Assembly (NCBI GenBank): GCA_913061095.1 | Contig: CAJXVM010000004.1 | Location: forward strand, 127,556-191,555 | DNA from: an uncultured Ignavibacteria bacterium | Lineage (GTDB): Bacteria > Bacteroidota > Ignavibacteria > SZUA-365 | Length of the DNA stretch: 64,000 bases | Reading direction: 5' to 3' | Shown: positions 3,203-22,325 of the stretch, in pieces | How the letters are laid out: each line of letters begins with the position of its first letter | How positions within the stretch are numbered: position 1 is the first letter of the stretch | Position numbers and translations under genes: made by a program | Notes under the pieces: generated by a model | What the model saw: the letters and a program-made list of their open reading frames with translations, nothing else | Told to the model about the DNA's origin: nothing | Databases searched by the model: none

Positions 3203-3922
3203 CTAGGAAATCTTTCCGAGAATGCTCTGGAAACGCAGCCGCCAGACCATGGTGACGGCTTCGCGGACGATTTTCTTGGACATTTTCGAAATGCCGACCC
3301 GCCGGTCCATGAACACGATGGGGATTTCGTGAATGCGGAAGCCTTTCTTCCAAGCTTTGAAGCTCATTTCGATCTGGAAGGAATAGCCGTTGCTGTGTAC
3401 GCGGTCGAGATCGATGGCCTTGAGCACCTCGATGCGGAAACACTTGAAGCCGCCCGTGGCGTCCCGCACGGGCAGCCCGGTGACAATGCGCGTGTACTGG
3501 TTCGCGAAGTAGCTGAGCAGCAGCCGCTTCATCGGCCAGTTCACGACGTTGACGCCCTGGATGTATCGCGAGCCGAGGACGAGGTCGTATTCCTCGATGG
3601 ACTCCAGGAAGCGCGGAAGCGTACCGGGATCATGCGAGAAGTCGGCATCCATTTCGAAAACACAGTCATAACCCTTCGCGATGGCGTATTTGAATCCGGC
3701 CACATACGCTGTACCCAGCCCCATTTTCTTCTCGCGCTCGAGCAAATGTATGCGCTGATTCTGCTCCATCATCTCCTTGACCGCATCCGCGGTGCCGTCA
3801 GGAGAATTGTCGTCGACGACAAGCACTTCAAGACGATCGTCCTGCCCCAGAATCTCAGGAATGATATTCCGGATATTCTCCAGCTCGTTGTACGTCGGTA
3901 TGATGACCAGTGCGCGATTCAT
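3203..3922 (-). CDS. GT2 polyprenol-phosphate (dolichol-phosphate-like) mannosyltransferase family glycosyltransferase
   Basis: VIIPTYNE...VVDDNSPDGT...EMDADFSHDP motifs are typical of Dpm1/ArnC-like GT2 enzymes. Confidence 0.85.
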   Translation of the reverse strand: MNRALVIIPTYNELENIRNIIPEILGQDDRLEVLVVDDNSPDGTADAVKEMMEQNQRIHLLEREKKMGLGTAYVAGFKYAIAKGYDCVFEMDADFSHDPGTLPRFLESIEEYDLVLGSRYIQGVNVVNWPMKRLLLSYFANQYTRIVTGLPVRDATGGFKCFRIEVLKAIDLDRVHSNGYSFQIEMSFKAWKKGFRIHEIPIVFMDRRVGISKMSKKIVREAVTMVWRLRFQSILGKIS

Positions 3923-4114
3923 TTCTGCGGATTGCTTCCCGTCTGCGGTGCGTTCAAGATAGATTTCAAAATATCCGAAGAATTTGCGTCAACTCAAAGT
4001 AGGAGCAGGAGCACGTAAAGACTGAGGGTGAAGAAGGCGTGGAGCAGAGGGTTCGACCGTGCGGAGGCATTTTTCGTATATTGCCGGATACGTGTTACCT
4101 GAAAGGCAGAGACA

Positions 4115-7100
4115 ATGAGAATCACTCCATCCCTTCTTTATATCATTACGCTGTTTCTTCTCATCATGGATGCACAGGCGCAGGTCGCGGATCATGTCGT
4201 GATCAGCGAGTTCGCCACGCGCGGTGCCTCCGGCAACCAGGCTGGGGAGTTCGTGGAGATCTATAATCCCACCGGCGAAACCGTCGACATCTCCGGCTGG
4301 GAACTGCAGTATCAGTCCGCCAGCGGCTCGGCATATTCACGGCTCGCACGCATCCCCGACGGGACTGAGATGCGCCCGAAATCCTTCTACCTGATCACGG
4401 GTTCCTCGTGGAACGGAACCCCGGAAGCGGATGTCACCTGGCCCTCATCCGGGATGGCCGACAACGGCAACATCCGCATTACCGACGACAGCGGACGCCC
4501 CATCGACCGCGTCGGATACGGCTCGGGCAACAATCCCGAAGGATCCGCTGCGCCGAATCACGGGACGTCCGCCAACGATAACAGCGTCGAACGCAAGGCT
4601 TCCGCGACATCGACCGCGGCAACCCTCAGTACGGGCGGCACAGAGGAATTCGCCGGCAATGGGTGGGACGGCAATGACAACGGCGCGGATTTCATCGAGC
4701 AGACCAATGGCCGGAATCCCCAGAATTCCGCAAGCGCCGCGGAGCCCCCGTCGGCGGACGGCTCCGGCACGGCCACGACTTCCGTCCAGCAAGCCGGCGC
4801 CGGCGACACGCTCGACCTTCCCATCGAGTTTACTCCCTCCGCGCAGTTCACCATCTCCGCGATGAAAGTCGTGATTCCGTCCGGCTTTCTCTGGTCAGGC
4901 AATGCCGCGGATGTCACGCTCGACTCTCGCATCCAGGCCGAGGTCTCCGTCGATGCCGACACCGTGCATCTCGACCGACTGACATTCTCCGATGTATCTG
5001 CGACCATCACGGTGGAAAATCTGGTCGCGGCGTCCAGCACGGGCAGTTATCCGTTTGTCATTCTTACCTCCGGCGGCGAGAGTTTCCTGCCCATTCAGAA
5101 TCCCCCCGCCGTCTTCGTGCGCGGCGGACCCATCCCCATCGCCGAAGCGCGTGAAAACGACGCCAACGGTGTGCCGGTGCATCTCGGCGAAATCGTGACC
5201 GTCAATGGCATCGTGACCGTGGCGGATCAGTTCGGCGCGCCGGGCTATATCCAGGATCACACCGGCGGCATCGCGATCTACGACTTCGACTTCACCGAGT
5301 CCGTCAGCATCGGCGACGAGGTGACGCTGACCGGGGAGATCACGCATTTCAACGGACTCACTGAACTCGAAAGCGTGACCATCGAGTCCATACCCTCCAC
5401 GGGCAACACCGTGACGCCCGAGGTGGTGAGTATCGAGGCACTGCTCAATGACGGGCAGGGTGGCGACGAGCGCTATGAAAGTGAGCTGGTGCGCCTCAAC
5501 AACGTGACCGTGAATACGTCGGCCTGGACGGTCAGCGGTTCCGGCACGAATTACAAACTGTCGGACGGCACCTTCGCAATCGACGTGCGCATCGATAACG
5601 ATGTGCCCTTTGCGGGAGATCCGGCTCCCGGCGGATCCTTCGACATCGTGGGCGTGCTCAGCCAGTACAAGCGCGATGCGCCGTTCGCGGGGGGATATCA
5701 GCTCATGCCGCGCCTCGGCAGCGACGTGATCGCCACAGGACCGAGGATCATCGATGGTCCGAACGTGACGGATATTCAGTCCGACGCGGTCACGCTTTCC
5801 TGGAGCACCGGCGAGGAGGCCGAGGGATTCGTGCGTTACGGGGAAACCGCCGCGTTCGAACTCGGTGTGGCCGAGAGTGACGAAACCGCCGGCGGCAGGG
5901 AGAACAGCGCGCTGATCAGCGGACTCGACCCGGCGACGATTTACCGTGTACAGGCGTATTCCGTTGCGAATGCGGATACGAGCTTTTCCCAGCCCATGTA
6001 CGTGAGCACGTCGTCACTGAATTCCACCGGGGACATCAACGTGTACTTCAACCAGGAGGTCGACAACAGTATCGCCGGCGGTGTGGAAGCGCAGGGTGAC
6101 GTGCTGATCGCGAACAGGCTTATGGACCGTATCGATGCGGCGCAATACAGCATCGACCTCTGCTTTTACAGCCTCAGCGGCCGGCCGGGCGACGATATCG
6201 CAGAACGGCTGCTCGCTGCGCGGGATCGCGGCGTACGCATCCGCGCGATTTTCGAAACGGACAACGCAAATACCAATGCCATGCGCACGCTGCGCAACAA
6301 CGTGCCTGCCATCGTCGATAACTTCGACCGCACCAATGCCGGTGCCGGACTCATGCACAACAAGTTCGTGATCATCGACGCGCGTGACCGCAGCAGCGAC
6401 CGTGACGACTGGGTCATCATGGGCTCGTGGAATCCCACCGAGCCGGGTACCTTCGACGACGCGCAGAATGTCGTGGAAATCCAGGACCAGGCGCTGGCGA
6501 ATGCTTACACGTGGGAGTTTGAGGAGATGTGGGGCTCCGGCACCGACACGCCGAACAGCGCGGCGTCGCGTTTCGGCGCGCGCAAGCTCGACAACACGCC
6601 GCATCTGTTTTTCATCGGACAGGATGAGCCGAGAATCCCCATGGAGCTGTACTTCAGTCCCAGCGACCAGGTCTCCGCCCGTCTCGTCAATGCGGTGAAC
6701 GACGCCGGCACGTCGCTGTATTTCGCCACGCTGACCTTCACCCGCGACGACATCGCGCGCGCGCTGGTCGACCGGCACGACGAAGGAATCCCCGTGCGGG
6801 GTATCATGGATAATCGCACCGACCAGGGCAGTGAGTTCGATTACCTGCAGTCCAGCGGCGTGGATGTCTTTCTCAAGAAAGGCCTGAGCGGTTTCCTCCA
6901 TCACAAGTATCTCATCGTGGATGCGGAATCCCCGGTCGCGGATGCGCCGCATGTGATTACCGGCTCGCACAACTGGTCCAACGCCGCCGAGTTTTCCAAC
7001 AACGAGAACACGCTCGTCATCCATGACCGGGCGATCGCGGAGCAGTACCTGCAGGAGTGGTATACACGCTATGTCGATGCCGGCGGCACGGGCGTGATCG

Positions 7101-7405
7101 TTCTGGATGTGGAGGATGTCACAACGGTTCCGGTGGGATTTGACGTGGCAGTGTATCCGAATCCCATGACGCGAGGCGGCACGGTTGCCGTCGAGATGGG
7201 TGAGGCCACGTCGCTGACGGAGATCCGCGTGCTCGATCTGCTCGGAAGGGTGCGGCTCTCGCGCTCGCTGAGTGACTCGTCCGCTCCGTCACAGACGCTG
7301 CGGCTCGAGGCATCGGCGCTGGAGCCGGGCACCTACGTCCTGCAGCTGCAGCGGCGTGGCGGCAGCGTGCAGTTCGCCCGCTTCGTCATCGTACCGGCAC
7401 ACTGA
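4115..7405 (+). CDS. T9SS-secreted extracellular nuclease-like protein: lamin-tail domain + OB-fold + FN3 + PLD-superfamily (2x HKD) + Por C-terminal domain
   Basis: Signal peptide MRITPSLLYIITLFLLIMDAQAQ. The LTD is VVISEF...EFVEIYNPTGETVDISGWELQY. The OB-fold-like region is GEIVTVNGIVTVADQFGAPGYIQDHTGGIAIYD. The FN3-like segment is PNVTDIQSDAVTLSWSTGEEAEGFVRYG. Two HKD motifs are present (HNKFVIID and HHKYLIVD). The CTD VAVYPNPMTRGG...VQFARFVIVPAH is T9SS-type. Confidence 0.75.
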   Translation: MRITPSLLYIITLFLLIMDAQAQVADHVVISEFATRGASGNQAGEFVEIYNPTGETVDISGWELQYQSASGSAYSRLARIPDGTEMRPKSFYLITGSSWNGTPEADVTWPSSGMADNGNIRITDDSGRPIDRVGYGSGNNPEGSAAPNHGTSANDNSVERKASATSTAATLSTGGTEEFAGNGWDGNDNGADFIEQTNGRNPQNSASAAEPPSADGSGTATTSVQQAGAGDTLDLPIEFTPSAQFTISAMKVVIPSGFLWSGNAADVTLDSRIQAEVSVDADTVHLDRLTFSDVSATITVENLVAASSTGSYPFVILTSGGESFLPIQNPPAVFVRGGPIPIAEARENDANGVPVHLGEIVTVNGIVTVADQFGAPGYIQDHTGGIAIYDFDFTESVSIGDEVTLTGEITHFNGLTELESVTIESIPSTGNTVTPEVVSIEALLNDGQGGDERYESELVRLNNVTVNTSAWTVSGSGTNYKLSDGTFAIDVRIDNDVPFAGDPAPGGSFDIVGVLSQYKRDAPFAGGYQLMPRLGSDVIATGPRIIDGPNVTDIQSDAVTLSWSTGEEAEGFVRYGETAAFELGVAESDETAGGRENSALISGLDPATIYRVQAYSVANADTSFSQPMYVSTSSLNSTGDINVYFNQEVDNSIAGGVEAQGDVLIANRLMDRIDAAQYSIDLCFYSLSGRPGDDIAERLLAARDRGVRIRAIFETDNANTNAMRTLRNNVPAIVDNFDRTNAGAGLMHNKFVIIDARDRSSDRDDWVIMGSWNPTEPGTFDDAQNVVEIQDQALANAYTWEFEEMWGSGTDTPNSAASRFGARKLDNTPHLFFIGQDEPRIPMELYFSPSDQVSARLVNAVNDAGTSLYFATLTFTRDDIARALVDRHDEGIPVRGIMDNRTDQGSEFDYLQSSGVDVFLKKGLSGFLHHKYLIVDAESPVADAPHVITGSHNWSNAAEFSNNENTLVIHDRAIAEQYLQEWYTRYVDAGGTGVIVLDVEDVTTVPVGFDVAVYPNPMTRGGTVAVEMGEATSLTEIRVLDLLGRVRLSRSLSDSSAPSQTLRLEASALEPGTYVLQLQRRGGSVQFARFVIVPAH

Positions 7406-7474
7406 CGCCACCGCCGAACCAACGGCTCGGCCAATTTCCGGATACACAAAATTCGTTCCCTGTCGCGGGGAACA

Positions 7475-7503
7475 TGCACACTGCTTCCATCGTACAGTGT
7501 GCA
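7475..7503 (+). other. Perfect 9-bp inverted repeat hairpin (TGCACACTG-11nt-CAGTGTGCA) between nuclease and A2M genes
   Basis: Read directly from the sequence. There is no T-run after it, so it is not a canonical terminator. Confidence 0.4.
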
Positions 7504-7545
7504 TAATCACGCCTGCCAGAATCGATCAATATCCGGAGACCCGTC

Positions 7546-10500
7546 ATGCTGCTCAGCATCCGCCTCGCATTTCTGCTTCTGATCACGGCACCCGTGATAT
7601 TCCTTTCGACGGAACTGCTCGAAGGACTTTCCTACACCACGAACTGGAGCGTGTTCATGAAAGGCGACTACGAGGAACAATGGAAGGAAGTCGACAGGGC
7701 GCTCGATGAGGGACTGCCGAAAACCGCGCTTGAACTCGTGGAAAAGATTTACGAGCGAGCGCAGCGCGAGGGCAACCGTCCCCAGATCGTGAAAGCCATC
7801 TCCTACCGGGTCGCCCTGCATTCGGTCACCAGTGAGGAAGACGAAACCGTCCTCATCGACGATCTCGAAACGGAAATCGATGCGGCGGAGCAGCCGGTGC
7901 GCGCGATTCTCACATCCATGCTCGCCGACCTCTACTGGAATTATTATCAGCAGAATCGCTGGCGCATCCATGAGCGCACGCAGGTGGAAGACGATCCTGC
8001 AGCAGACTTCCGCACCTGGGACGCATCCGTGTTTTTCGACACGACGGCCGCACTGTATCTGCAGGCGCTCGAGCCGGCAGATCTTCTGAAAGACACGCCC
8101 GTTGAAGCGTATCGGGACATTCTGCATGCGGGGAAGGACGGTGAGCAGTACCGGCCGACGATGTACGATGTACTGGCGCATCGCGCGCTCGATTTTTTTG
8201 AAAACGATGAGACCGACCTTCCATCCCCGCAGCAGGATTTCGAGGTCACCGGGCTGGAAGCCCTCGCGCCGCTTGATGCATTCATCGCGACGGAGTTCAC
8301 ATCCCCCAATCCCTCCAACACGAAATACAACGCCATACTCCTCTACCAGGATCTCCTGCGTTTTCACCGCGACGGCGGCAGGGAGGAGGCCGTCATCGAT
8401 CTCGATCTGCAGCGGCTGGAATTCAGCCGGCGGATCACCTGGCATGAGGACGCCGACACGACGTTCTTCCAGGCAGTGGAATCCATCTACGGGAAGTATT
8501 CCTCCTCGCCGATGTCGGCCCAGGCGGGCTATGTGCTGGCGGATTACCATTTCGACGCCGGAAACTACGTGGAGGCGCTGGCTTGCTGCAGGAAGGAAAT
8601 CGAGCGCTTCCCCGAATCGCGTGGTGCGGTGAACTGCCGCGCGCTGGAGTCGCGGATCCTGCAGAAGGAGCTGTCACTGACGGTGGAGGAAAGCATGCCG
8701 CCGGACGCGCCCTTCCTGATCAGCGCGGGCTTCAGGAATATTCGCGATGTTCATTTTCGCATTGTGCGCATGCCCTCCGACGCGCTGTTTTCCGATCGAC
8801 GGGGCTATCGCAGTGCGCGTGAACGCCTCGAAGATCTGCTTGACGGAAATGTGGTGAAAGAGTGGTCGCAGACATTGCCCGTTACCGACGATTATAAAAA
8901 GCATCTGGTGGATCTGCGCGGTCCCGCGCTGCCGCTGGGTACGTACATGCTGTTTATGAGCCACGGCGCGGATTTCTCCCTCGACGAAAACGCCATCGCC
9001 TATGCCTGGCTGCGCGTGACACGCCTCAGTCTGCAGAGTCTCAATGAACAGCGTGGAGGACCAAACCGCTTTTTTGTGCTTGATGCGGTCAATGGCTACC
9101 CGCTGGAGGACGTGAAGGTGGAGATGTTCACCCAGCGATGGGAGTCGGGCAGCTACCGCTACGAGCGTGTCCCCATGGGGGACAGGCGGACAGATGCAAA
9201 CGGGTCGTTCACGCTTGAACCCGGAAGGGATCGCCAGGGACGCTTTTTCCGCCTTTCACTCGGGAAGGACACGCTCGCGATCGGACAGTCTTTCTACGCC
9301 TGGCAGCGCGGGAGCGAACGGGCGCAGCGCCGCACCATGTTTTTCACCGACCGCGCGATCTATCGTCCCGGACAGACCGTGCACGTGAAGGGCATTGTGC
9401 TTGAAGGCAGTTCGGAAAGGGCGGATTACGCCGTGGTGAAGAATGTGCGCAGCACCGTTGTGTTTTACGATGCGAACCATCAGAAAATTCATGAGACGGA
9501 TGTTCGCACCAATGAATACGGCTCGTTCAACACGGTGTTCACCGTGCCGTCGGGCGTGCTGACGGGAATGATGTCCATCCGCAACGAATGGGGATCGACC
9601 CCTCTGCGCGTCGAGGAGTATAAACGGCCGAAATTCGAGGTGGAGTTTGAGCCGGTGAAAGGCACCTACCGTCTCAATGAAACGGTGAACGTCACGGGAG
9701 TGGCAAAAGCCTATGCCGGCGCGAACATCGACGGTGCCGAGGTGAGCTGGCGCGTGGTCCGGCGTACACGCTACCCGTACTGGTTCTGGTGGTGGCGTCC
9801 CATCCCGCGCGGCGAGGAACGCGAGATCGCGCATGGCACGACCCGTACCGACGCCGACGGGCGCTATGAGATTTCGTTCGAGGCTTTGCCGGACAAATCG
9901 GTGGACAAATCGACGCAGCCGGTGTTTACCTATGAGATCTCGGCGGATGTGACGGACATCAACGGCGAAACGCACAGCGCCACAGCGAGTGTGAGCGCGG
10001 GATACACGTCCATCGAGCTCGGACTCCGCACGGCGGAAACCGTTGATGTGCACGAGGAAGCGAAGATCGTCATCACCGCGCGCAATCTGGGCGGCGAGCC
10101 GGTTGCGACGGATGGCACCATCGTCGTCGAACGCCTCGATGCGCCGGACCGGATTCTGCGTGATCGGGTCCTGCCGAAACCGGATACCTGGCTGCTCAGC
10201 GAAGCGGAATTCGTACGTGATTTCCCCCATGACGTGTACAGGGATGAGAATATTCCCGACACCTGGCCGGTCGCAGAGCGGGTCGTTGAGCGCCGCTTCC
10301 GCTGCGGTGAGGAGGGAGAGGATTCCCTGCGCCTCGCGGATCTCGAACCCGGCCGCTACCGCATCACAATCACGGCGAAAGATCCCTCGGGCGAGGATCT
10401 CGAGCTGAAGAAATTCATCACGGCCTACCGCGCGGAGGCGCCCGTGCCGTATGCCGCGCCGGAACTGTACGTCGAGAATTCGACGCACGTGGAGCCCGGC

Positions 10501-13500
10501 GAGACCACGCGCTTCCTTTATGGCAGTGCCTACCGCGACGTGCGCGCATTGTACCGTGTACTGCGCCGCGGCGAACCGGAGCGCGAGGAGTGGAGCGATT
10601 TCGATGGTGACCTGCGAACGTTCGAACTCACGGCACAGGAAAAACATCGCGGCGGTTTCGTTGCGCAGATTTTCTTCGTGCGAAATTACCGTCTCTACCA
10701 GAAGACTGTCATCATTTCCGTTCCCTGGTCGAACAAGGATCTCGCCATCGAGACCGCGACCTTCCGCGACAAGCTGCGTCCGGGAGAGAAGGAGGAATGG
10801 CGTATCACGATCAAAGGAGCGAAGCGTGATCAGGTGGCCGCCGAAGTGCTGGCCTCCATGTACGACGCGTCGCTGGATGCCATATACAGGCAGGAGTGGC
10901 CGCGCTTCTCCTGGCCGTTTTTCGCCTGGCACGTCCAGACCTCCGATCACAGCTTCGGCGGCGCATCCGGCCAGCTCTACATGGACGACTGGAATGAGAG
11001 TCAGCCGTCATGGAATCAGCAGTACGACCGGCTGAATCTTTTCCTGCTTGGTCGCGGCCGCTATTTCTACGGTCAGCGGGCGTACATGCTGAAATCCACT
11101 GCCGTTGAAGAGGGAAGCATGGCGTTCGCCATGGGAGGTGAAGCGCCCCCGCCAGCGGCGGAAGCGGAGGACCGCGCTGTTCGTCGGGACAAAATGGAAG
11201 CGGTGCTCGACGAAGAGGCCGAGGTCGAGGAGAAGCCCGCAGAGGAAGGATCCGGTGAAGGCGGCCTCGACATGGTCAAGGCGCGCACGAATTTTGATGA
11301 AACCGCGTTTTTCTATCCCGACCTGCTGACGGACGAAGAGGGGAATGTCGTTCTGCGCTTCACCGCGCCCGAAGCGCTGACGCGCTGGAAGCTGAGGCTG
11401 TATGCGCATACGCCGGATCTGAAAACCGGTTATCTCGAAAAGACGGCGGTCACGCAGAAAGAGCTGATGGTCATGCCCAACATGCCGCGCTTTTTGCGCG
11501 AGGGCGATCGCATCGTGCTCATGACCAAGATCACGAACCTCTCCGACACGACGCTCAGCGGCACGGCCGTGCTGAAACTCTTCGACGCGCTGTCGATGCA
11601 GCCGATCGACGGGAAGTTCAATCTCCGCGACGCCGAACGCAGCTTCACTGCCGAGAAAGGGCGCAGCACGACCGCGCGTTGGGAAATCAGTGTGCCGGAG
11701 GGTGTGTCGGCCGTAACGTACCGTATCGTCGCGAAGGCCGGCAGTTTCTCCGACGGTGAGGAGATGGCGCTGCCCGTGCTGCCGAATCGCATGCTCGTCA
11801 CCGAAACCATGCCGATGAATATCCGCGGGGGACAGACGAAGGAGTTCACCTTCGAGAAGCTGGTGAACAGCGGTGCGTCGTCCACCCTGCGTCATCATCA
11901 GCTCACGCTCGAGATGACATCCCAGCCGGCCTGGTACGCGGTGCAGGCGCTGCCCTACCTGATGGAGTATCCCTACGAATGCTCCGAGCAGGTATTCAAC
12001 CGCTACTACGCCAACAGCATCGCCGGGCATATCGCCAACAGCAACCCGAAGATCAAACGCGTCTTCGATGCGTGGAAAAATACCGACGCGCTGCTCTCCA
12101 ACCTGCAGAAGAACCAGGATCTGAAGATGCTGCTGCTCGAGGAAACGCCCTGGGTGATGCAGGGCAAGGATGAAAGCGAACGCAAGAAGCGCATCGCCCT
12201 GCTGTTCGATCTCAACACCATGGGCAACAATCTCGAGAGCGCCATGCTCAAGCTGGAGAAGGCGCAGGCGAGCAACGGCGGCTGGCCGTGGTTCCCCGGT
12301 CTGCCCGAGAGCCGCTACATCACGCAGTACATCGTGGCAGGATTCGGACACCTCGACGCGTTGGATATCACCGTCAGTGACGAACGCGTCGCGCGCATGA
12401 TTCGCCGAGCCGTGAATTTCATGGACGAGCGCATGCACGCCGACTACCTCGAACTCAAGCGGCGTGAGGATGACACCTTCGATCCGGAAAAGGACTATCT
12501 CAATTACCTCGCCATACAGTACCTCTACGCCCGCAGCTATTTCCTCGATCAGGAGATTCCGGATCGCTACGATGAGTCGGTGAACTTCTGGCTCGAGGAA
12601 TCCCGCAAGTGGTGGGTGCGCCGCAATCACATGGCGCAGGGCATGATCGCGCTTGCCCTGCACCGCTTCCGCGACAGCGACGTGCCGATGGCCGTTGTGC
12701 GCTCACTGAAGGAGCGCGCACTGCAGAACGAGGAGATGGGCATGTACTGGAAATACGACCGCGGCTGGTTCTGGTACCAGGCACCGATCGAAACGCAGGC
12801 CCTGCTCATCGAGGTATTCGATGAAGTGGCGAACGACATGAACGCCGTCGAGGAAATGAAGATCTGGCTGCTCAAGCAGAAGCAGGTGCAGGACTGGGGA
12901 TCTACCGTCGCAACGGCCGAGGCCTGCTACGCGCTGCTGCGCCGCGGCAGCAATCTGCTCGCATCGGACAAGCTGGTGGAAGTCAGCATGGGCGGCGAGC
13001 GCATCGATCCGAAAGCCATGGGCGCGGACATCGAGGCCGGCACGGGACATTACCGCGTGGATTGGCGCCGCGGCGAGATCGATCCCGACATGGGACGCGT
13101 CACGGTGAAGAAGGAAGACCAGGGCATTGCCTGGGGCGCGTTGTACTGGCAGTACTTCGAACAGCTCGACAAAATCACGCCCGCACAGTCTCCGCTGCAG
13201 ATCGAGAAAAAGCTCTTCCGCCAGCGCAACACGGAGAAGGGCGTGGTGCTCGAACCGATCACCGGGGAGAATGCCCTCGAGGTAGGCGACGTGCTGAAGG
13301 TGCGCATCACGATTCGCGTGGACCGCGACATGGAATACGTGCATATGAAGGACATGCGCGGCGCTGGACTCGAACTGATCGAACAGCTCTCCGGCCATCG
13401 CTATCAGGGCGGTCTCATCTACTACGAAGCCCCGCGCGACGCCTCTGTGAATTTCTTTTTCCACTGGCTGCGCAAGGGCGTGCACGTGTTCGAGTACCCG

Positions 13501-13614
13501 CTGCGTGTCTCCCACGAGGGCCGCTTCTCAAACGGCATCTCCAGCATCCAGTGCATGTACGCTCCCGAATTCGCCGCGCATACGGCGGGGGTGACGGTTA
13601 CCGTTAAGCCGTAA
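7546..13614 (+). CDS. Alpha-2-macroglobulin family protein (2022 aa) with thioester motif CSEQ
   Basis: Signal peptide MLLSIRLAFLLLITAPVIFLSTE with GGAGAC as RBS. The size and MG-domain-like repeats fit bacterial A2M. The thioester-type motif is PYECSEQVF (CxEQ). The C-terminal receptor-binding-like domain is present. Confidence 0.8.
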   Translation: MLLSIRLAFLLLITAPVIFLSTELLEGLSYTTNWSVFMKGDYEEQWKEVDRALDEGLPKTALELVEKIYERAQREGNRPQIVKAISYRVALHSVTSEEDETVLIDDLETEIDAAEQPVRAILTSMLADLYWNYYQQNRWRIHERTQVEDDPAADFRTWDASVFFDTTAALYLQALEPADLLKDTPVEAYRDILHAGKDGEQYRPTMYDVLAHRALDFFENDETDLPSPQQDFEVTGLEALAPLDAFIATEFTSPNPSNTKYNAILLYQDLLRFHRDGGREEAVIDLDLQRLEFSRRITWHEDADTTFFQAVESIYGKYSSSPMSAQAGYVLADYHFDAGNYVEALACCRKEIERFPESRGAVNCRALESRILQKELSLTVEESMPPDAPFLISAGFRNIRDVHFRIVRMPSDALFSDRRGYRSARERLEDLLDGNVVKEWSQTLPVTDDYKKHLVDLRGPALPLGTYMLFMSHGADFSLDENAIAYAWLRVTRLSLQSLNEQRGGPNRFFVLDAVNGYPLEDVKVEMFTQRWESGSYRYERVPMGDRRTDANGSFTLEPGRDRQGRFFRLSLGKDTLAIGQSFYAWQRGSERAQRRTMFFTDRAIYRPGQTVHVKGIVLEGSSERADYAVVKNVRSTVVFYDANHQKIHETDVRTNEYGSFNTVFTVPSGVLTGMMSIRNEWGSTPLRVEEYKRPKFEVEFEPVKGTYRLNETVNVTGVAKAYAGANIDGAEVSWRVVRRTRYPYWFWWWRPIPRGEEREIAHGTTRTDADGRYEISFEALPDKSVDKSTQPVFTYEISADVTDINGETHSATASVSAGYTSIELGLRTAETVDVHEEAKIVITARNLGGEPVATDGTIVVERLDAPDRILRDRVLPKPDTWLLSEAEFVRDFPHDVYRDENIPDTWPVAERVVERRFRCGEEGEDSLRLADLEPGRYRITITAKDPSGEDLELKKFITAYRAEAPVPYAAPELYVENSTHVEPGETTRFLYGSAYRDVRALYRVLRRGEPEREEWSDFDGDLRTFELTAQEKHRGGFVAQIFFVRNYRLYQKTVIISVPWSNKDLAIETATFRDKLRPGEKEEWRITIKGAKRDQVAAEVLASMYDASLDAIYRQEWPRFSWPFFAWHVQTSDHSFGGASGQLYMDDWNESQPSWNQQYDRLNLFLLGRGRYFYGQRAYMLKSTAVEEGSMAFAMGGEAPPPAAEAEDRAVRRDKMEAVLDEEAEVEEKPAEEGSGEGGLDMVKARTNFDETAFFYPDLLTDEEGNVVLRFTAPEALTRWKLRLYAHTPDLKTGYLEKTAVTQKELMVMPNMPRFLREGDRIVLMTKITNLSDTTLSGTAVLKLFDALSMQPIDGKFNLRDAERSFTAEKGRSTTARWEISVPEGVSAVTYRIVAKAGSFSDGEEMALPVLPNRMLVTETMPMNIRGGQTKEFTFEKLVNSGASSTLRHHQLTLEMTSQPAWYAVQALPYLMEYPYECSEQVFNRYYANSIAGHIANSNPKIKRVFDAWKNTDALLSNLQKNQDLKMLLLEETPWVMQGKDESERKKRIALLFDLNTMGNNLESAMLKLEKAQASNGGWPWFPGLPESRYITQYIVAGFGHLDALDITVSDERVARMIRRAVNFMDERMHADYLELKRREDDTFDPEKDYLNYLAIQYLYARSYFLDQEIPDRYDESVNFWLEESRKWWVRRNHMAQGMIALALHRFRDSDVPMAVVRSLKERALQNEEMGMYWKYDRGWFWYQAPIETQALLIEVFDEVANDMNAVEEMKIWLLKQKQVQDWGSTVATAEACYALLRRGSNLLASDKLVEVSMGGERIDPKAMGADIEAGTGHYRVDWRRGEIDPDMGRVTVKKEDQGIAWGALYWQYFEQLDKITPAQSPLQIEKKLFRQRNTEKGVVLEPITGENALEVGDVLKVRITIRVDRDMEYVHMKDMRGAGLELIEQLSGHRYQGGLIYYEAPRDASVNFFFHWLRKGVHVFEYPLRVSHEGRFSNGISSIQCMYAPEFAAHTAGVTVTVKP

Positions 13615-13659
13615 CCCGTGTAAGCGCAGACGCGAAATTCATCTCGCGCTGATCACGTA

Positions 13660-13739
13660 AGTGCAAAGTACAAAGTGCAAAGTGCAAAAGTCAGTCGACA
13701 CACACTCCGTTTTCCGGAAGTGTTTTGCACTTTGCACTG
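13660..13739. terminator. Bidirectional terminator hairpin with 16-bp stem plus GTGCAAAGT direct repeats
   Basis: gtgcaaagtacaaagtgcaaagtgcaaaag...tgttttgcactttgcactg. AGTGCAAAGTGCAAAA pairs with TTTTGCACTTTGCACT across a ~33-nt loop. It lies between the convergent A2M and hydroxylase genes. Confidence 0.6.
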
Positions 13740-13774
13740 TTGAATGATAGGTGCACTTCGAGACGGAGAGATAC

Positions 13775-14569
13775 TCATTCCCCCGAGTACACATCCCCCT
13801 TCAGCGGCCGGAAGGCGAACAGGTGTTGACGAATGTAGTTTTTCGGAAATTCAATTTCCCTGAGTCCGTAACCGGCGGGTTTTTTCCGCTCGGGAAGAAA
13901 GCCGGTGCCGAAGATCCAGTCCCATATCGCCAGCTTGGTGGCGAAGTTGTACGAGCCATCCGCGACGACATCGGAGTGATGCCAGCGGTGCATCTCCGGT
14001 CCGTTGATCACGTACTGCAGCTTGCCGGTGTGCACGTCGATATTCGAGTGAATCCACATCCCCCAGATCGCAGATATCATGCCTTTGTAGAGGGCGACCT
14101 CGGGCGCGGCGCCGAGCAGGACAATGGGAGCGAACTCGATCGTCTGATTGATCAGGATTTCCAGCGAATGGGAGCGCGATCCCGAGAGCCAGTCCACGTC
14201 TTTCGTGGAGTGATGCGCCTCATGGATGCGCCAGAGGCGAATCGAGCGGTGCTGGATGCGGTGGAACCAGTAGATGTACAGGTCATGCGTCACCAGGAAG
14301 AGCAGCACCTGCAGCCACACGGGCCAGTGGGAAATCAGATGCATCCGCGACAGCATCGTACTCGCGTCGATCCACTGGATCAGCCAGTTGATCAGCAGTC
14401 CCAGGAGATAGCTCTGGACAATGGAATACATGATCAGATCATTCCAGAATCCTTCGCGCAGAAACTTCTGCTGCTCCTCGTACGGGAACAGCCGTTCGAA
14501 TGTGACGATGATCGCCGCCGCGATCACGATGACGAACGGGGATATCAGTTCGAGGCTCATTGATTGCAC
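13775..14569 (-). CDS. Fatty acid hydroxylase / sterol desaturase superfamily membrane protein
   Basis: Histidine boxes HRIQH, HEAHH and HRWHH sit in a polytopic hydrophobic protein. Confidence 0.8.
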   Translation of the reverse strand: MQSMSLELISPFVIVIAAAIIVTFERLFPYEEQQKFLREGFWNDLIMYSIVQSYLLGLLINWLIQWIDASTMLSRMHLISHWPVWLQVLLFLVTHDLYIYWFHRIQHRSIRLWRIHEAHHSTKDVDWLSGSRSHSLEILINQTIEFAPIVLLGAAPEVALYKGMISAIWGMWIHSNIDVHTGKLQYVINGPEMHRWHHSDVVADGSYNFATKLAIWDWIFGTGFLPERKKPAGYGLREIEFPKNYIRQHLFAFRPLKGDVYSGE

Positions 14570-14668
14570 GCCATCCTGTATGACAACATTCTGTGTGACA
14601 TGGCAGAACCGGACTCCGAGGGGAATCCGGTCCTGCAGGAGGGGGAATTGGAATCAGGTGTGCGTCCG

Positions 14669-15574
14669 TTATGCGACTTCCGGTTCCTCCTGCTTCAGAT
14701 GCACACGGCGAAGTTTCTTGCGCGGTGCGAGCTCGCTCTCGTACACGCGCTTGATTCCGTCACCGAGTGACTTTTCGATATCTCGAATGTTGGCGACGAG
14801 TCGGTATAGACCGCCGATTTCGACTGATGCGGCATGATCGGAACCCCACATGGCGCGATCAAGCGTGACATGTCGCTCGATGAACGTGGCGCCCATGGCG
14901 ACGGCGGCCCAGGTCGGTGCGAGGCCCGTTTCGTGACCGGAGTACCCGATCGGGGTGTCAGGATATTTCTGCATCAGTGTGTTCAGCATGCGGAGGTTGA
15001 GCTCGTTCACATCACAGGGGTAGGCGGATGTTGAATGGGCGATGAGCAGATTGTCTGTGCCGAGAACTTCCACGGCAGCTGCGATTTCCTCTGTGGTGGA
15101 CATCCCCGTGCTGATCATCAGCGGCTTTCCGGTTTCTTTCATGTGCTTCAGCAGTGCATGGTCGGTCAGCGAGGCGGATGGCGCCTTGTAAACCGGCGGA
15201 TCGAATTTTTCGATGGCATCGACGGACGGTTCATCCCAGCAGGAGGCGAACCAATGAATGCCCTTCTCCCCGCAGTAGCGGTCGATCTCCGCGTATTCAT
15301 CTTCGCCGAATTCGATCAGGTGCCGGTAATCGATATATCGCATGCGACCCCAGAGCGTGTCGCGCTCGACATCCCATTGATCACGGGGCACGCACAGCTC
15401 CGGTGTGCGCTTCTGAAACTTGACTGCATCGCAGCCGGAGAGAGCGGCGCCGTCGATGAGCTTTTTTGCGAGGTCAAGAGAACCGTTGTGATTGATGCCG
15501 ATCTCGGCGATGACATACACGGGATGTCCGCTGCCGACGGTTTTCTCTCTGATCTGGCGTATGGGATTGCTCAT
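14669..15574 (-). CDS. N-acetylneuraminate/pseudaminate synthase (NeuB/SpsE) family PEP-condensing enzyme, without C-terminal SAF/antifreeze-like domain
   Basis: VYVIAEIGINHNGSLDLAKKLID...DAVKFQKR...GYSGHE is the NeuB TIM-barrel signature. The internal ATG at 15574 is preceded by AGGAGAAGG, whereas the ORF-track start at 15622 has no RBS. The protein is ~302 aa, too short to carry an SAF domain. Confidence 0.75.
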   Translation of the reverse strand: MSNPIRQIREKTVGSGHPVYVIAEIGINHNGSLDLAKKLIDGAALSGCDAVKFQKRTPELCVPRDQWDVERDTLWGRMRYIDYRHLIEFGEDEYAEIDRYCGEKGIHWFASCWDEPSVDAIEKFDPPVYKAPSASLTDHALLKHMKETGKPLMISTGMSTTEEIAAAVEVLGTDNLLIAHSTSAYPCDVNELNLRMLNTLMQKYPDTPIGYSGHETGLAPTWAAVAMGATFIERHVTLDRAMWGSDHAASVEIGGLYRLVANIRDIEKSLGDGIKRVYESELAPRKKLRRVHLKQEEPEVA

Positions 15575-15781
15575 GCGGTGATCCTTCTCCTGGTGCGGTG
15601 AATGTTTCCAGGAAAAGTACACGCGCTCCGTTACGGAAGATTGAGCGGTCCGTTAAAAGTGATGTAAGGATTGATGTGCCGAGGGTAAGCGCTGTGTTCG
15701 GGCTGTGTGAGGGGGATGGACTGCAGATGACAGATTGCGGATTTCAGATGTCGCATACCGCAATAATCAGTATCGACTATC

Positions 15782-15809
15782 TGCAATATGCAATTTGCAA
15801 TCTGCAATG
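15782..15809. repeat. 4x tandem 7-bp repeat TGCAATn in a 265-bp AT-richer intra-cluster gap
   Basis: ctgcaatatgcaatttgcaatctgcaatga, read directly. It sits between the KdsC-like and NeuB-like genes. Confidence 0.5.
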
Positions 15810-15839
15810 ACTGAGCAGGAATCGCAGGAGGGTGTTGGA

Positions 15840-16475
15840 TCAGGTCGACGTTTGTCGAAGTGTAATGATGGCCTCGGCGAAGTCACGAAATGCTCCATTG
15901 CCGCCGCGCCAGTGGCAGACGTACTGGGCGAGATCGTGAATCTGCGGCATGGCATCGGCCGGTGCGGCGGTGAATCCGCGTTCTCCGATCACGTCCATGA
16001 TGCCGATGTCGTTGACATCGTCTCCGATGTAGGCGATTTCCTCGGTGGAAAGGCCGGTTTCATTCCGAATGTGGCTGAGCGTTGCGATCTTGTCCCTGAC
16101 CCCGAGGTAAAGGTGTTTGAGTTTCAGCTTCTCGGCGCGCCGTTCGAGATTCGGTGACTGTTCTCCGGTGATGATGCCCGTCTCGATGCCGAGCAGTCCC
16201 AGGCGCTCCATGCCCATGCCGTCACGGATGCTGTAGCGCTTGACGAGCTCACCATCCGCGCCGTAGTACACGCCGGTGTCCGTGAGCACACCGTCGTTGT
16301 CGGTCAGGACAAGGCGGATGCGACGCGCCCGGCGCGCGGCTTCGTCATAACTCAAATGCTGCAGAGTGCCAAGCAGACTGGAGAGCACGGTGTTTGCGGG
16401 CAGAGTATGCATGCGGGAAACATACTTGTCACCTGAATGACTTCCAAAGCGGAGTTTACCACGCTGTCCAGCCAC
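15840..16475 (-). CDS. HAD-superfamily KdsC-like (3-deoxy-ulosonate-phosphate) phosphatase
   Basis: RLVLTDNDGVLTD (DxDGV motif I), GIITGEQS and IGDDVNDIGIM (motif III) resemble KdsC/YrbI. The start is ambiguous: GTG at 16475 overlaps the SDR stop, and the alternative ATG is at 16412. Confidence 0.65.
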   Translation of the reverse strand: MAGQRGKLRFGSHSGDKYVSRMHTLPANTVLSSLLGTLQHLSYDEAARRARRIRLVLTDNDGVLTDTGVYYGADGELVKRYSIRDGMGMERLGLLGIETGIITGEQSPNLERRAEKLKLKHLYLGVRDKIATLSHIRNETGLSTEEIAYIGDDVNDIGIMDVIGERGFTAAPADAMPQIHDLAQYVCHWRGGNGAFRDFAEAIITLRQTST

Positions 16476-17277
16476 CGTCGACCACCAGATTTGCTCCTGT
16501 CATGTAGCGGGACGCATCGCCGGCGAGAAATACAATTCCACCGCGGTAATCCGTCGGACGCGCCATCTCACCCAGCGGCGTGCGGCGCGAATAGTTTTCC
16601 ACGAAATGCCTGTCCTGACCGTTCTGCACTCCGCCCGGTGACAGCGTATTTACCCGCACACCGGCCGCTCCCCAGTACGATGCGAGGAAGCGTGTGAAAT
16701 TGATGATTGCTCCTTTGGCCGTCGGATAGACGGCGGATTTGTAAAACGTCTGCGTGCCGTCCTCATTCCGGTACAGCGACTGGTCCGGCGCAACCATCCC
16801 GTATGTCGATGCGATGTTGATGATGCTGCCGCCGCCCTGTTCAGCCATGTGCGCGCCGAACACCTGGCTGCAGATGAAGGCTCCGGTCACGTTGACGTCC
16901 AGGCAGCGCCGCCAGAGATCAATCGGATAGTTCTCGAATCGGGAGGCCTCCAGTGCGGATACGGGATCCTCCACCATGTCGTTGATCGCGGCGTTGTTGA
17001 CGAGAATGTGTACGCGGCCGAATGCCTCGACAGCAGCATCGAACAGTGCGCGGACGGAGACGGGATCGGTGATGTCCGCCGCCATGCCCATGCAGCGCCG
17101 ACCGCTTTCAGCGGAGAGCTCCTCCGCGAACGACGCGCAAGCTTCGGCGTCCAGGTCGGTGGCGATGACGCTGGCGCCCGCCTCGGCAAGTGCGCGGCAG
17201 TGCTCGCGGCCGATCAGACCGAGTGCCCCGGTGACCACCGCCGTGCGGCCCTCGAGAGAAAACATCGAAGAAGTCAT
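16456..17277 (-). CDS. SDR family NAD(P)-dependent oxidoreductase
   Basis: TGALGLIG Rossmann motif, NNAA, and catalytic YPTAK. Confidence 0.8.
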   Translation of the reverse strand: MTSSMFSLEGRTAVVTGALGLIGREHCRALAEAGASVIATDLDAEACASFAEELSAESGRRCMGMAADITDPVSVRALFDAAVEAFGRVHILVNNAAINDMVEDPVSALEASRFENYPIDLWRRCLDVNVTGAFICSQVFGAHMAEQGGGSIINIASTYGMVAPDQSLYRNEDGTQTFYKSAVYPTAKGAIINFTRFLASYWGAAGVRVNTLSPGGVQNGQDRHFVENYSRRTPLGEMARPTDYRGGIVFLAGDASRYMTGANLVVDGGWTAW

Positions 17278-17281
17278 GCTT

Positions 17282-18235
17282 TCAGTTGTTCCTTGTCTTC
17301 AGTTCAAGATCGGCATAGACGGGATAATGATCCGACAGGGTGAAATCGTGGAGCACGCCGTAGTCATGCACATGCCAGTGACGGCTGAACATGATGTAGT
17401 CGAGCGTCCGATTCGGCAGCCCGGTCGGATAGGTGTAGAACGGCAGCGAATCGTCGTGCGGCACCGTGCGCAGGCCCGTATCCTCGAGAATCCGCAGCGT
17501 ACTGTCGTCATGGTAGTTGTACCGGTCGATATCCCCCTTGCCGAATTTCTCGATACGGCAGCCCGGAGCGACGGTGTTGAAATCCCCCATGAATACGATC
17601 GGCACATCCCCGAGCTTTCGCAGTACCTGCGCGATGCTCCGGGCCTGGCGCATGCGGGATTCCGGACTGTACGCATGGAGGTGGGTGTTGCCGATCCAGA
17701 TGATGCTGTCCTTGAGGAGAAACGGCGCCAGCGTGAAACCGCAGGAGGCGAGAAAGAATACTTTCCCCGGCAGCAGGTGATTGTAGGCCTGCTCCGAAAG
17801 CTTGGGCAGCTGGCTGAGCATCAGGTTCTGGTAGCGGAAGCCCGCGAATCCGACACCGTGCTCAAGTACGGAGTCGAAGCCGCTGAGAACGCGGTAGTGA
17901 TCGCGCTGCCGGTATTTCCCGATGATTTTTTCACTGACACCCAGCACGCCGTTGAAGACTTCCTGCAGTGCGACGACGTCGTAGTTCTGCCGGTGGCGAT
18001 TCAGCCACTCCGAGATGAAATACGCGTAGGCACGCGTTTCATGCATCAACTCGATGCGCTGCGCTTCCTCCTCCTTCGCACCCGCGAGTGCGAACGGAAG
18101 CTTGGGACCCTGGCCGCGATGCGTGTTGATGGTGAGGCAGCGGAGTCGGTATTCACGCAGCAGCGGCTGTGTGTCATGCGATTGAAGCAGGGAGGAGCGC
18201 TTGCGCAGTGCTTCCGATGCTATCTGTGTGATCAT
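17282..18235 (-). CDS. Endonuclease/exonuclease/phosphatase (EEP) family protein
   Basis: The C-terminal SDHYPV motif and the GDFN and NTHL signatures match the EEP fold. Confidence 0.65.
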   Translation of the reverse strand: MITQIASEALRKRSSLLQSHDTQPLLREYRLRCLTINTHRGQGPKLPFALAGAKEEEAQRIELMHETRAYAYFISEWLNRHRQNYDVVALQEVFNGVLGVSEKIIGKYRQRDHYRVLSGFDSVLEHGVGFAGFRYQNLMLSQLPKLSEQAYNHLLPGKVFFLASCGFTLAPFLLKDSIIWIGNTHLHAYSPESRMRQARSIAQVLRKLGDVPIVFMGDFNTVAPGCRIEKFGKGDIDRYNYHDDSTLRILEDTGLRTVPHDDSLPFYTYPTGLPNRTLDYIMFSRHWHVHDYGVLHDFTLSDHYPVYADLELKTRNN

Positions 18236-18265
18236 GAGCCGGGTCCTCGCTGTTTCATGCTGGAA

Positions 18266-19606
18266 TCAGGCAAGGGGCTTTCTCGCCTTGGTGTGGAAAT
18301 TGCTTGTCTTACGGAACACCGGCTCAACCGGCTCGCCGCGCAGGCGCGCGGGAAGCTCGCCTGCATCAACGGCATCACGGAGCAGGCCGAGGACCTCGCG
18401 GTATGCCGACAGCGTGTACGCGACGTCGTCATCGCTGTGACTGAATGACATGTTGTGGAAACCGGACCACAGGATGCCACGTTTGATCATCTCCTGCTGC
18501 ACGTAGGATTTCTGCAGCAGTGGATCGCCGGCGGATGCATCGAAGGTGACGATGGTGCGGGGAGCGAAACCCTTGCATCCGACGTACGGCATGCTCAGCT
18601 CCGCGGCGATGGCATTGACACCGTCCCTGAGTTTTCGTCCCTGATGGAACAGATGTTCCTGCACGTTCCGGCGGCGCATCTCCTCGATCGTGGCTCTGGC
18701 CGCTGCCAGCGAGAGCGCCTCTCCTCCGAAGGTCGTGTAGAAGAAGACATCCTGCTCGCAGAGCTCCATGATGTCTTTCCGCCCGGTGAGGATGGATAAG
18801 GGCATGCCGTTTGCGACCGCTTTCGAGAAGCAGGCCAGATCGGCCTTGATCCCGAAGTATTCCTGTGCCCCGCCCAGTGCGAGACGGAATCCCGTCCACA
18901 TTTCATCGAAAATCAGCAGTGTGCCGTTGCGCTCGCAGGCATCTTTCAGCTCGTGCAGGAAGTTGTTCTCTGGCGCATCGAACACCACAGGTTCGAGAAT
19001 CACGCATGCCGTGTCCTCATCCAGCGAATCAATGACGGATTGAATGTCGTTGTAGTTCACCGTGTACGTGAGATCACGCACCGCCTGGGGAATGCCCCGG
19101 TTGCGGTCGGTCACGGCAATGTACCAGTCATGCCAGCCATGGTAGCCGCAGCAGAGCACCGTGCTGCGGCCCGTATACGCTCGCGCCAGGCGCACCGCGG
19201 CGGAAGTCACGTCGTTGCCCGACTTGGAATACCGCACCATGTCCGCATTGGGGATGACCTCGCGGAGCAGTTCGGCGACCTCCACCTCGAGAGGATGCAC
19301 GAGCGAAAAGGTGATCCCACGCTCGAGCTGCACGCGAATGGCATCATCGACGGCGTCGTATGCGTATCCGAGCGAGATGGGACCGATGCCCATGTTGTAG
19401 TCGATGTACTCGTTTCCGTCAACATCGACGATGTGCGCCCCCTTCGCGCGGTCGATGAACTTCGGAGCCGCGCCGCGCACATACTGACCGGGACCCTTGG
19501 CGAGTGTCTGCGTCTGGCTGGGGATCAGTCCGAGCGCCCGCGCATACAACGCGTCGGATTGTGTGATATCGGGATAGTCCTGGTTGAACGCAATGGTATT
19601 TGGCAT
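18266..19606 (-). CDS. Class-III PLP-dependent aminotransferase (glutamate-1-semialdehyde aminomutase-like)
   Basis: GNEYIDY...SGNDVTSAAVRLAR...LIFDEMWTGFR...FSKAVANG contains the PLP lysine. Confidence 0.8.
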   Translation of the reverse strand: MPNTIAFNQDYPDITQSDALYARALGLIPSQTQTLAKGPGQYVRGAAPKFIDRAKGAHIVDVDGNEYIDYNMGIGPISLGYAYDAVDDAIRVQLERGITFSLVHPLEVEVAELLREVIPNADMVRYSKSGNDVTSAAVRLARAYTGRSTVLCCGYHGWHDWYIAVTDRNRGIPQAVRDLTYTVNYNDIQSVIDSLDEDTACVILEPVVFDAPENNFLHELKDACERNGTLLIFDEMWTGFRLALGGAQEYFGIKADLACFSKAVANGMPLSILTGRKDIMELCEQDVFFYTTFGGEALSLAAARATIEEMRRRNVQEHLFHQGRKLRDGVNAIAAELSMPYVGCKGFAPRTIVTFDASAGDPLLQKSYVQQEMIKRGILWSGFHNMSFSHSDDDVAYTLSAYREVLGLLRDAVDAGELPARLRGEPVEPVFRKTSNFHTKARKPLA

Positions 19607-19612
19607 GGTGTC

Positions 19613-20578: not shown

Positions 20579-20607
20579 TCAGCTGCTGGTGAAGGAGAAT
20601 GAGGAAT

Positions 20608-21465: not shown

Positions 21466-21484
21466 GGAGTTTCCCGTTTGCGTT

Positions 21485-22321: not shown

Positions 22322-22325
22322 GCTG

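Follow-up and report, generated by a model that had tools for sequence, protein, structure and literature searches.

A stand-alone thioester alpha-2-macroglobulin with a TPR-like N-terminal domain, encoded beside a probable secreted nuclease in an uncultured Ignavibacteria bacterium

Work on bacterial alpha-2-macroglobulins (A2Ms) rests on two proteobacterial models, ECAM and Sa-A2M with PBP1C on one side and MagD with the mag operon on the other. The idea of a periplasmic defence plus repair system leans on the linkage to pbpC. Bacterial A2Ms of Type I carry a thioester and are encoded beside pbpC, while those of Type II are without a thioester, lie in a six-gene mag operon and depend on their operon partners MagA-F (PMC5764988, PMC3735191). 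Here we analyse the single A2M gene found in a 64-kb stretch of DNA (64,000 nucleotides, hereafter the window) from contig CAJXVM010000004.1 of an uncultured Ignavibacteria bacterium. The gene is an ATG-started open reading frame (ORF) at 7546..13614 on the plus strand and encodes an A2M family protein of 2022 amino acids (aa), as described in an original prediction made from the sequence alone. We consider it likely that this gene encodes a stand-alone, Sec-exported, A2M-type protease trap, belonging to a large family without a fixed partner, and that the nuclease gene next to it is there by synteny.

The thioester motif is located where it is expected. CxEQ occurs once in the A2M gene, as CSEQ at C1479 (nt 11980). 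Since a single-sequence phmmer search of the window A2M against the PDB returned no match, we relied on a family profile built from 40 homologues and on hhalign, taking yfhM (ECAM) and pbpC of E. coli K-12 from NC_000913.3 as references. The alignment of this family profile with ECAM/YfhM reached a probability of 98.8% in local and 99.7% in global mode, and paired LMEYPYECSEQ with LKAYPYGCLEQ of ECAM, placing C1479 on ECAM C1187. This residue is the thioester cysteine of ECAM (PMC4498604), and CSEQ is therefore at the thioester position; the misplacement of the motif that would have spoken against the original prediction was not seen. C1479 stands at a helix start in the AlphaFold (AF2) model, its C, E and Q are invariant in the 40 homologues, and CxEQ is kept in 79 of the 81 full-length family copies recovered from genome loci. 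By homology, the window A2M is predicted to form the thioester.

The residues that shield the thioester in Type I proteins are also present. A lock tyrosine and a Met-Tyr motif of the C-terminal MG domain (CTMG) form the thioester-protecting pocket of ECAM (PMC4498604). hhalign aligns the family-invariant Y1464 of the window A2M with the Tyr of the ECAM 'ARY', and M2004-Y2005 (within QCMYAPEF), equally invariant in the family, with ESMY at ECAM 1632-1635 in the C-terminal MG domain. Residues 1171-1240 have the lowest internal conservation of the protein (top-residue frequency 0.19-0.25, 22-28% gaps), are rich in acidic residues, Ala and Pro, and align to the bait region of ECAM, where Arg923-Leu942 are disordered (PMC4498604). 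At the bait position that had been proposed for comparison with ECAM/YfhM, this segment is a candidate for a protease-sensitive bait. Conservation within the family peaks in the thioester region, in the remainder of the thioester domain (TED) and in the C-terminal MG domain. Immediately behind the thioester helix, the TED carries an insertion (residues 1496-1560) that is largely gapped against ECAM and ranks among the most conserved segments of the family (0.74-0.77 top-residue frequency), with residues 1514-1533 modelled at pLDDT <50. This insertion may be a family-specific interface.

The domain organization of the superfamily, consisting of MG domains, a bait-region domain, CUB, TED and a C-terminal MG domain, is found in the window A2M in the same order. 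Pfam identifies MG2 (PF01835, E 1.4e-17), A2M (PF00207, E 4.6e-17) and bMG10 (PF17973, E 3.2e-30), with a match to A2M_BRD at residues 978-1110 below threshold. The AlphaFold model of residues 1240-2022 (pLDDT 78.7) consists, in order, of a beta-sandwich, a CUB-like domain, a helical TED and a C-terminal beta-sandwich (MG-CUB-TED-CTMG). Foldseek searches with this model returned the Salmonella A2M (4u48, E 2.4e-28) and the MG7-to-C-terminus part of ECAM (4ziu, E 7e-28) as the top PDB matches, and C3, C5 and TEP1 were likewise strong structural matches. The N-terminal AF2 model (pLDDT 83) begins with a TPR-like domain, followed by NIE-MG1-like domains.

This TPR-like domain of ~330 aa matches no model in Pfam or NCBIfam. 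An exhaustive HMMER search with residues 40-375 yielded, at E up to 0.001, 3217 clusters at 50% identity; in all 150 matches listed of these 3217, the domain lies near the protein start (within ~170 residues, usually in the first 70), and the proteins of these 150 are either ~2000 aa long or shorter, probably fragments. As it heads A2Ms of ~2000 aa or shorter proteins in all the matches listed, the domain is family-specific, and it presumably provides a protein-docking surface. The family itself is widespread in the FCB and PVC bacterial groups. A protein search covering 5.8 billion sequences gave 384 matches among the candidates scored, nearly all of the full-length ones measuring 1980-2130 aa and bearing, where named, the database labels 'alpha-2-macroglobulin family protein' or 'YfaS'. 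Scanning a single genome for each species, we found that at least 593 species genomes encode a relative. Within Bacteroidota these include Aquimarina, Arenibacter, Dyadobacter, Chitinophaga, Fulvivirga, Dawidia and Saprospiraceae, and beyond it the family reaches Ignavibacteriota, Cloacimonadota, Calditrichia, Verrucomicrobiota and Planctomycetota (Limnoglobus roseus). The gene is annotated generically in public databases and the A2M superfamily is well known; in the literature on macroglobulins in Bacteroidota and in connection with T9SS (the type IX secretion system) we found nothing on this A2M family, with the qualification that the long form may have been noted earlier. At the level of the family, this large group of TPR-bearing thioester A2Ms remains unstudied.

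The additional modules raise the question of whether the protein inhibits proteases at all. Its thioester could instead attach the protein covalently to another target, for instance polymers of the envelope or foreign cells, while the TPR-like domain recruits partners, in the manner of tagging by complement or TEP proteins. The TPR-like domain and the conserved TED insertion, which are without counterpart in characterised bacterial A2Ms, and the strong structural matches to C3, C5 and TEP1 are in keeping with such a role. Against it stand the hypervariable bait-like segment at the canonical position, the closest structural matches, which are the bacterial protease-trapping A2Ms, and a conserved gene context that offers no convertase-like or receptor-like partner. 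We therefore regard a complement-like function as very unlikely, and continue with the protease trap.

The original prediction stated that the A2M has no pbpC partner, and within the window this stands: tblastn with E. coli PbpC returned a best E of 4, and a regular-expression search for the GT51 motif (ED..F..H.G) in the six frames found no match. A hidden PbpC was considered in the 704-aa protein with a T9SS (type IX secretion system) sorting domain at 870-2984 on the minus strand, and rejected; its PF06832 match scores 17.4 bits against a cut-off of 26.8, extends over 28 residues alone, and is accompanied by no transglycosylase or transpeptidase domain. Among the relatives, pbpC is adjacent to the A2M in 0 of 87 loci. 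tblastn detects a class A PBP within 10 kb of the A2M in two of the 87, both more than 3 kb away and neither adjacent, and the one examined (L087), 3.3 kb from the A2M on the opposite strand, is without BiPBP_C, the C-terminal domain of PbpC. No mag-type operon is apparent either, the flanks of the window A2M being the PLD nuclease gene and a convergent hydroxylase gene; the Mag proteins were not searched individually.

These results bear on the possibility that the protein is an ordinary Type I A2M whose PBP1C is encoded elsewhere in the genome, the defence/repair pairing operating in trans. The ECAM-like thioester motif, bait-like region, lock Tyr and CTMG motifs would suit this explanation, and the pbpC search covered the 64-kb window rather than the remaining genome. 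A partnership in trans would, however, leave no supporting genomic signature, and neither the absence of PbpC from the window and of adjacent pbpC from the relatives, nor the missing lipobox and the different N-terminal architecture, agree with an ordinary Type I protein. We judge it improbable. The window A2M has the predicted chemistry of Type I, but lacks the lipoprotein anchor and the pbpC adjacency of Type I, and it shows neither of the two Type II features. A stand-alone thioester A2M with a TPR domain is the description that suits it best.

The first Cys of the window A2M is residue 347, and there is therefore no lipobox, in agreement with the non-lipobox N-terminus noted originally. 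Most family members are likewise without a plausible lipobox. Residues 2-20 are strongly hydrophobic (mean Kyte-Doolittle maximum 2.4, 19-residue window), AF2 models a helix over residues 3-28 followed by a disordered linker, and the hydrophobic segment is kept in close homologues. Reading of this segment revealed no evident small-x-small cleavage site, so that an uncleaved signal-anchor is possible. A Pfam scan found no T9SS sorting domain in the A2M, whose C-terminus is bMG10, and the protein was accordingly rejected as T9SS cargo. Given a Sec signal and no T9SS tail, the periplasm is the expected location, and the protein is probably tethered there to the inner membrane by its uncleaved N-terminal helix, as far as its sequence indicates. 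N-terminal targeting varies across the family: in most members it relies on an ordinary signal peptide or a helix of the anchor type, and plausible lipoboxes occur in a minority.

One relative has an unusual N-terminus. P0117 (2248 aa, on a 13-kb JGI metagenome contig) places an extracytoplasmic function (ECF)-type sigma-70 domain (residues 1-190) and a hydrophobic segment ahead of the TPR-like domain. Either two genes were merged in gene calling or this is a genuine sigma/anti-sigma-like fusion; if the fusion is real, the N-terminus would be cytoplasmic and the helix membrane-spanning.

As originally described, the A2M gene lies directly downstream of a gene for a T9SS nuclease. The neighbour carries two PLDc_2 modules with HxK(x)4D motifs (HNKFVIID and HHKYLIVD) and ends in a T9SS sorting domain (PF18962, E 7.2e-8; TIGR04183, 37.3 bits against a cut-off of 23). 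In the PDB, the best matches of its catalytic modules are the Nuc endonuclease (1byr, E 4.8e-12), Zucchini/MitoPLD and NucT, and its NCBIfam NucT scores are all far below the curated cut-offs. Like the Nuc/NucT/Zucchini nucleases it has two HKD-type PLDc_2 modules; unlike them, it joins these as a tandem pseudo-dimer in a 1096-aa protein with LTD, DUF5689, fn3 and T9SS domains. It is a probable secreted nuclease, with putative activity and substrate.

To follow this pair across relatives, we compared 90 of their A2M loci with the window itself. A single pass of tblastn and ORF clustering handled 86 of the loci, counted as 87 through a 6-kb duplicate contig of P0013; L089 and L090 were inspected from called genes, and the tandem copy of L008 and the duplicate contig L007 are inside the 90-locus set. 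The PLD-A2M pair, always with a divergent family-2 glycosyltransferase (GT2) gene upstream, occurs in five of the 90 loci, and the co-occurrence in relatives asked about originally proved to be confined to A2M identities of at least 59% (L002, 93%; L003, 68%; L004, 63%; L009, 62%; L089, 59%). The pair is gone at 55% identity (L006/L007 and L090), and at 45% (L008) the neighbour is a tandem A2M duplicate. The nuclease family reaches Ignavibacteria and 'Eisenbacteria', and no A2M lies within 8 kb of its orthologues at 54, 53 and 42% identity (three loci). In GCA_016218045.1 the orthologues of the A2M (P0020) and of the nuclease (P0303) are on different contigs. When 1069 flanking ORFs were clustered without bias, no conserved partner emerged, no neighbour family being present in more than 11 of the 87 loci. 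The commonest neighbour is a DAO-type FAD oxidoreductase (11/87), the remaining ones are housekeeping genes, the neighbours are oriented almost at random, and median gaps are above 100 bp.

A functional coupling of A2M and nuclease, with the A2M perhaps protecting secreted cargo from proteases, was part of the original prediction. In its narrowest form, the two genes would be a clade-limited two-gene unit in which, for example, the A2M shields the nuclease as it crosses the periplasm. They lie on the same strand 140 bp apart, with the A2M last before a convergent gene, and the GT2-PLD-A2M trio is retained in the five relatives, two of which have different outer flanks. Yet the pair is absent from the remaining A2M loci examined and beside the more distant nuclease orthologues, and the spacer ranges from 40 to 924 bp, with two strong hairpins in that of the window. 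A broad-spectrum trap, moreover, needs no dedicated client. As a T9SS tail is found on the nuclease and not on the A2M, the two products would finish in different places, and this speaks against the A2M as a protector of secreted cargo. We consider a two-gene unit unlikely. The position of the A2M beside the T9SS nuclease is ordinary lineage-specific synteny of one small clade, not functional coupling. The arrangement had been set apart from the usual pairing of a lipoprotein A2M with PBP1C, and the departure from the ECAM type is indeed true family-wide (no pbpC neighbour, usually no lipid anchor), whereas a new coupling to the nuclease is unsupported.

For the stand-alone trap, the canonical mechanism of bait cleavage, TED release and covalent capture is most likely, by analogy with the characterised A2Ms. 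An attacking protease would cut the exposed hypervariable bait segment (~residues 1171-1240), and this cut would free the TED from the thioester-shielding C-terminal MG domain, with its conserved Met-Tyr, and from the lock tyrosine Y1464. The C1479-Q1482 thioester could then react with the protease, resulting in covalent capture, presumably in the periplasm. Several points weigh against this interpretation. The family is known from sequences and models; its identity to ECAM is ~20%, and the single-sequence PDB search was empty. The putative state of the signal peptide and the putative final localisation were read from the sequence. The TED insertion and the TPR-like domain could imply a modified mechanism or a different target. 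Lastly, the GT2-PLD-A2M trio survives rearranged outer flanks on both sides in L003 and L089, and there is some room for local co-regulation of the trio within its narrow clade.

The wider meaning of the locus lies in the family. A very large group of A2Ms keeps its thioester machinery strongly conserved without a link to pbpC and adds a TPR-like module; the pbpC partnership is therefore not a general property of thioester A2Ms. We tentatively raise the possibility, which we would not yet call probable, that the window A2M represents an undescribed third bacterial class, with the thioester kept, no pbpC or mag partners, usually no lipidation and a TPR-like docking domain at its start. Such a class would then be the form of A2M that prevails in Bacteroidota and other FCB/PVC phyla. 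Through the TPR-like domain and the TED insertion, its members would be anchored, regulated or directed to targets in a way unseen in ECAM and MagD, for example as guards of the periplasm in organisms with many exported proteases. The cultured carriers Aquimarina, Dyadobacter, Chitinophaga, Fulvivirga and Limnoglobus offer tractable systems for the study of stand-alone A2M function.

Several observations concern the neighbourhoods of the A2M. L008, a Kapaibacterium metagenome-assembled genome, has full-length tandem A2Ms at 10001-16216 and 16389-22589 (2071 and 2066 aa) with the same Pfam domains, the sole tandem A2M duplication among the loci examined. The DAO-family FAD oxidoreductase (~355 aa) adjoins the A2M on the same strand, upstream or downstream, in Chitinophagales and Saprospiraceae (L061, 8707-9777; L030, 16257-17312; L067, 15760-16833). 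In several Flavobacteriaceae (L038, 8288-9679; L058, 8156-9517; L079, 8348-9700), the gene immediately upstream of the A2M is divergent and belongs to the Mur-ligase family (Mpl-like, judged by its three Mur ligase domains), and a DUF4136 lipoprotein gene often follows just downstream of the A2M. This adjacency is lineage-specific synteny, though the neighbour is peptidoglycan-related.

In the window, the transcription unit ends with the A2M gene, as the downstream gene converges on it. The hairpins of the spacer at 7406-7545, GTTCCC...GGGAAC and GCACACTG...CAGTGTGC, lie after the stop codon of the nuclease gene and before the start codon of the A2M gene, and the second of them is also present in L002. 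They could be a terminator or a leader element. A scan of 3900-14000 for sigma-70 promoters and terminators gave nothing better than shuffled sequence, and does not cover promoters of the Bacteroidota type. The spacer measures 40, 140, 258 and 924 bp across four genomes; the longest, at 9077-10000 in L004, carries 7-nt units (CTTTACT / CCTTTAC) repeated in a long tandem array. Beyond the A2M, co-directional genes at 13775-22564 on the minus strand encode the fatty acid hydroxylase, a NeuB-family synthase, a HAD hydrolase, an SDR, an EEP-family phosphatase/nuclease, a class III aminotransferase, a transketolase split into N and C halves, and a CTP_transf_3 cytidylyltransferase. This cluster resembles a pathway for nonulosonic acids or modified sugars. 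Synteny extends over it in L002 and L004, and L003 is without it. The coordinates of the features are given in Table 1.

Table 1. Features of the A2M gene and of its surroundings, in window coordinates (res, residues of the window A2M).
Feature	Position	Strand	Description or basis
A2M, whole ORF	7546..13614	+	2022-aa thioester-containing A2M family protein
N-terminal hydrophobic helix, res 1-28	7546..7629	+	Sec signal or uncleaved signal-anchor (predicted); sequence, hydropathy, AF2
TPR-like all-alpha solenoid, family-specific, res 43-372	7672..8661	+	Not in ECAM
Two beta-sandwich domains, res 375-580	8668..9285	+	Equivalent of ECAM NIE-MG1
MG2, res 598-680, invariant DRxxYRPGQ	9337..9585	+	Pfam; profile matches to ECAM, A2ML1 and A2M; invariant columns
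Bait-like hypervariable segment, res 1171-1240	11056..11265	+	Directly before the A2M domain; lowest conservation, ECAM alignment
A2M (MG7-like) domain, res 1253-1339	11302..11562	+	Pfam; aligned to ECAM 989-1058
Helical thioester domain (TED), ~res 1463-1806	11932..12963	+	AF2 helices, Foldseek, hhalign
CSEQ thioester motif, C1479...Q1482	11980..11991	+	Motif search, hhalign, family invariance
TED insertion, family-specific, highly conserved, res 1496-1560	12031..12225	+	hhalign gap against ECAM
C-terminal MG domain (bMG10/CTMG), res 1884-2008, RVDRD and QCMY motifs	13195..13569	+	Pfam PF17973; both motifs have a part in the thioester pocket (PMC4498604)
PLD nuclease neighbour (putative), 1096 aa, LTD-DUF5689-fn3-PLDc_2 x2-T9SS type A tail	4115..7405	+	Pfam, NCBIfam, PDB matches
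Family-2 glycosyltransferase (GT2), divergent	3203..3922	-	Accompanies the PLD-A2M pair in the narrow clade
Two neighbouring stem-loops within the 140-bp spacer	7452..7503	+	Fold -50.2 kcal/mol, z -4.16 over 146 nt
Fatty acid hydroxylase family gene, convergent, downstream	13775..14569	-	Converges on the A2M gene

Compared with the systems described so far, the window A2M is nearest to ECAM/YfhM and the Salmonella Sa-A2M (5a42, 4ziq, 4u48). It shares with them CxEQ at the same TED site, the lock Tyr, the CTMG Met-Tyr, a variable bait-like segment in the same place, predicted Sec export and the domain order NIE-MG1...MG-BRD-A2M-CUB-TED-CTMG. It differs from them in being ~370 aa longer at the low identity mentioned above, in a TPR-like solenoid that replaces the lipid anchor and MG0, in the absence of a lipobox and of an adjacent pbpC, here and in relatives, and in a conserved insertion of ~50-65 aa after the thioester helix. 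With the Type II proteins MagD of P. aeruginosa and YfaS of E. coli it has in common a large MG-domain architecture, a bait region, putative in the window A2M, and a non-lipoprotein signal peptide, and several database entries of its family bear the generic COG label 'YfaS'; unlike these partner-dependent proteins without CxEQ, it keeps the motif and has no conserved partners. The MG/CUB/TED fold and the thioester chemistry, putative here, are shared with eukaryotic A2M, A2ML1, CD109, C3/C4/C5 and insect TEP1. In contrast to the eukaryotic thioester proteins, the window A2M has no anaphylatoxin, C345C or receptor-binding module, and its N-terminal TPR-like domain is found in none of them.

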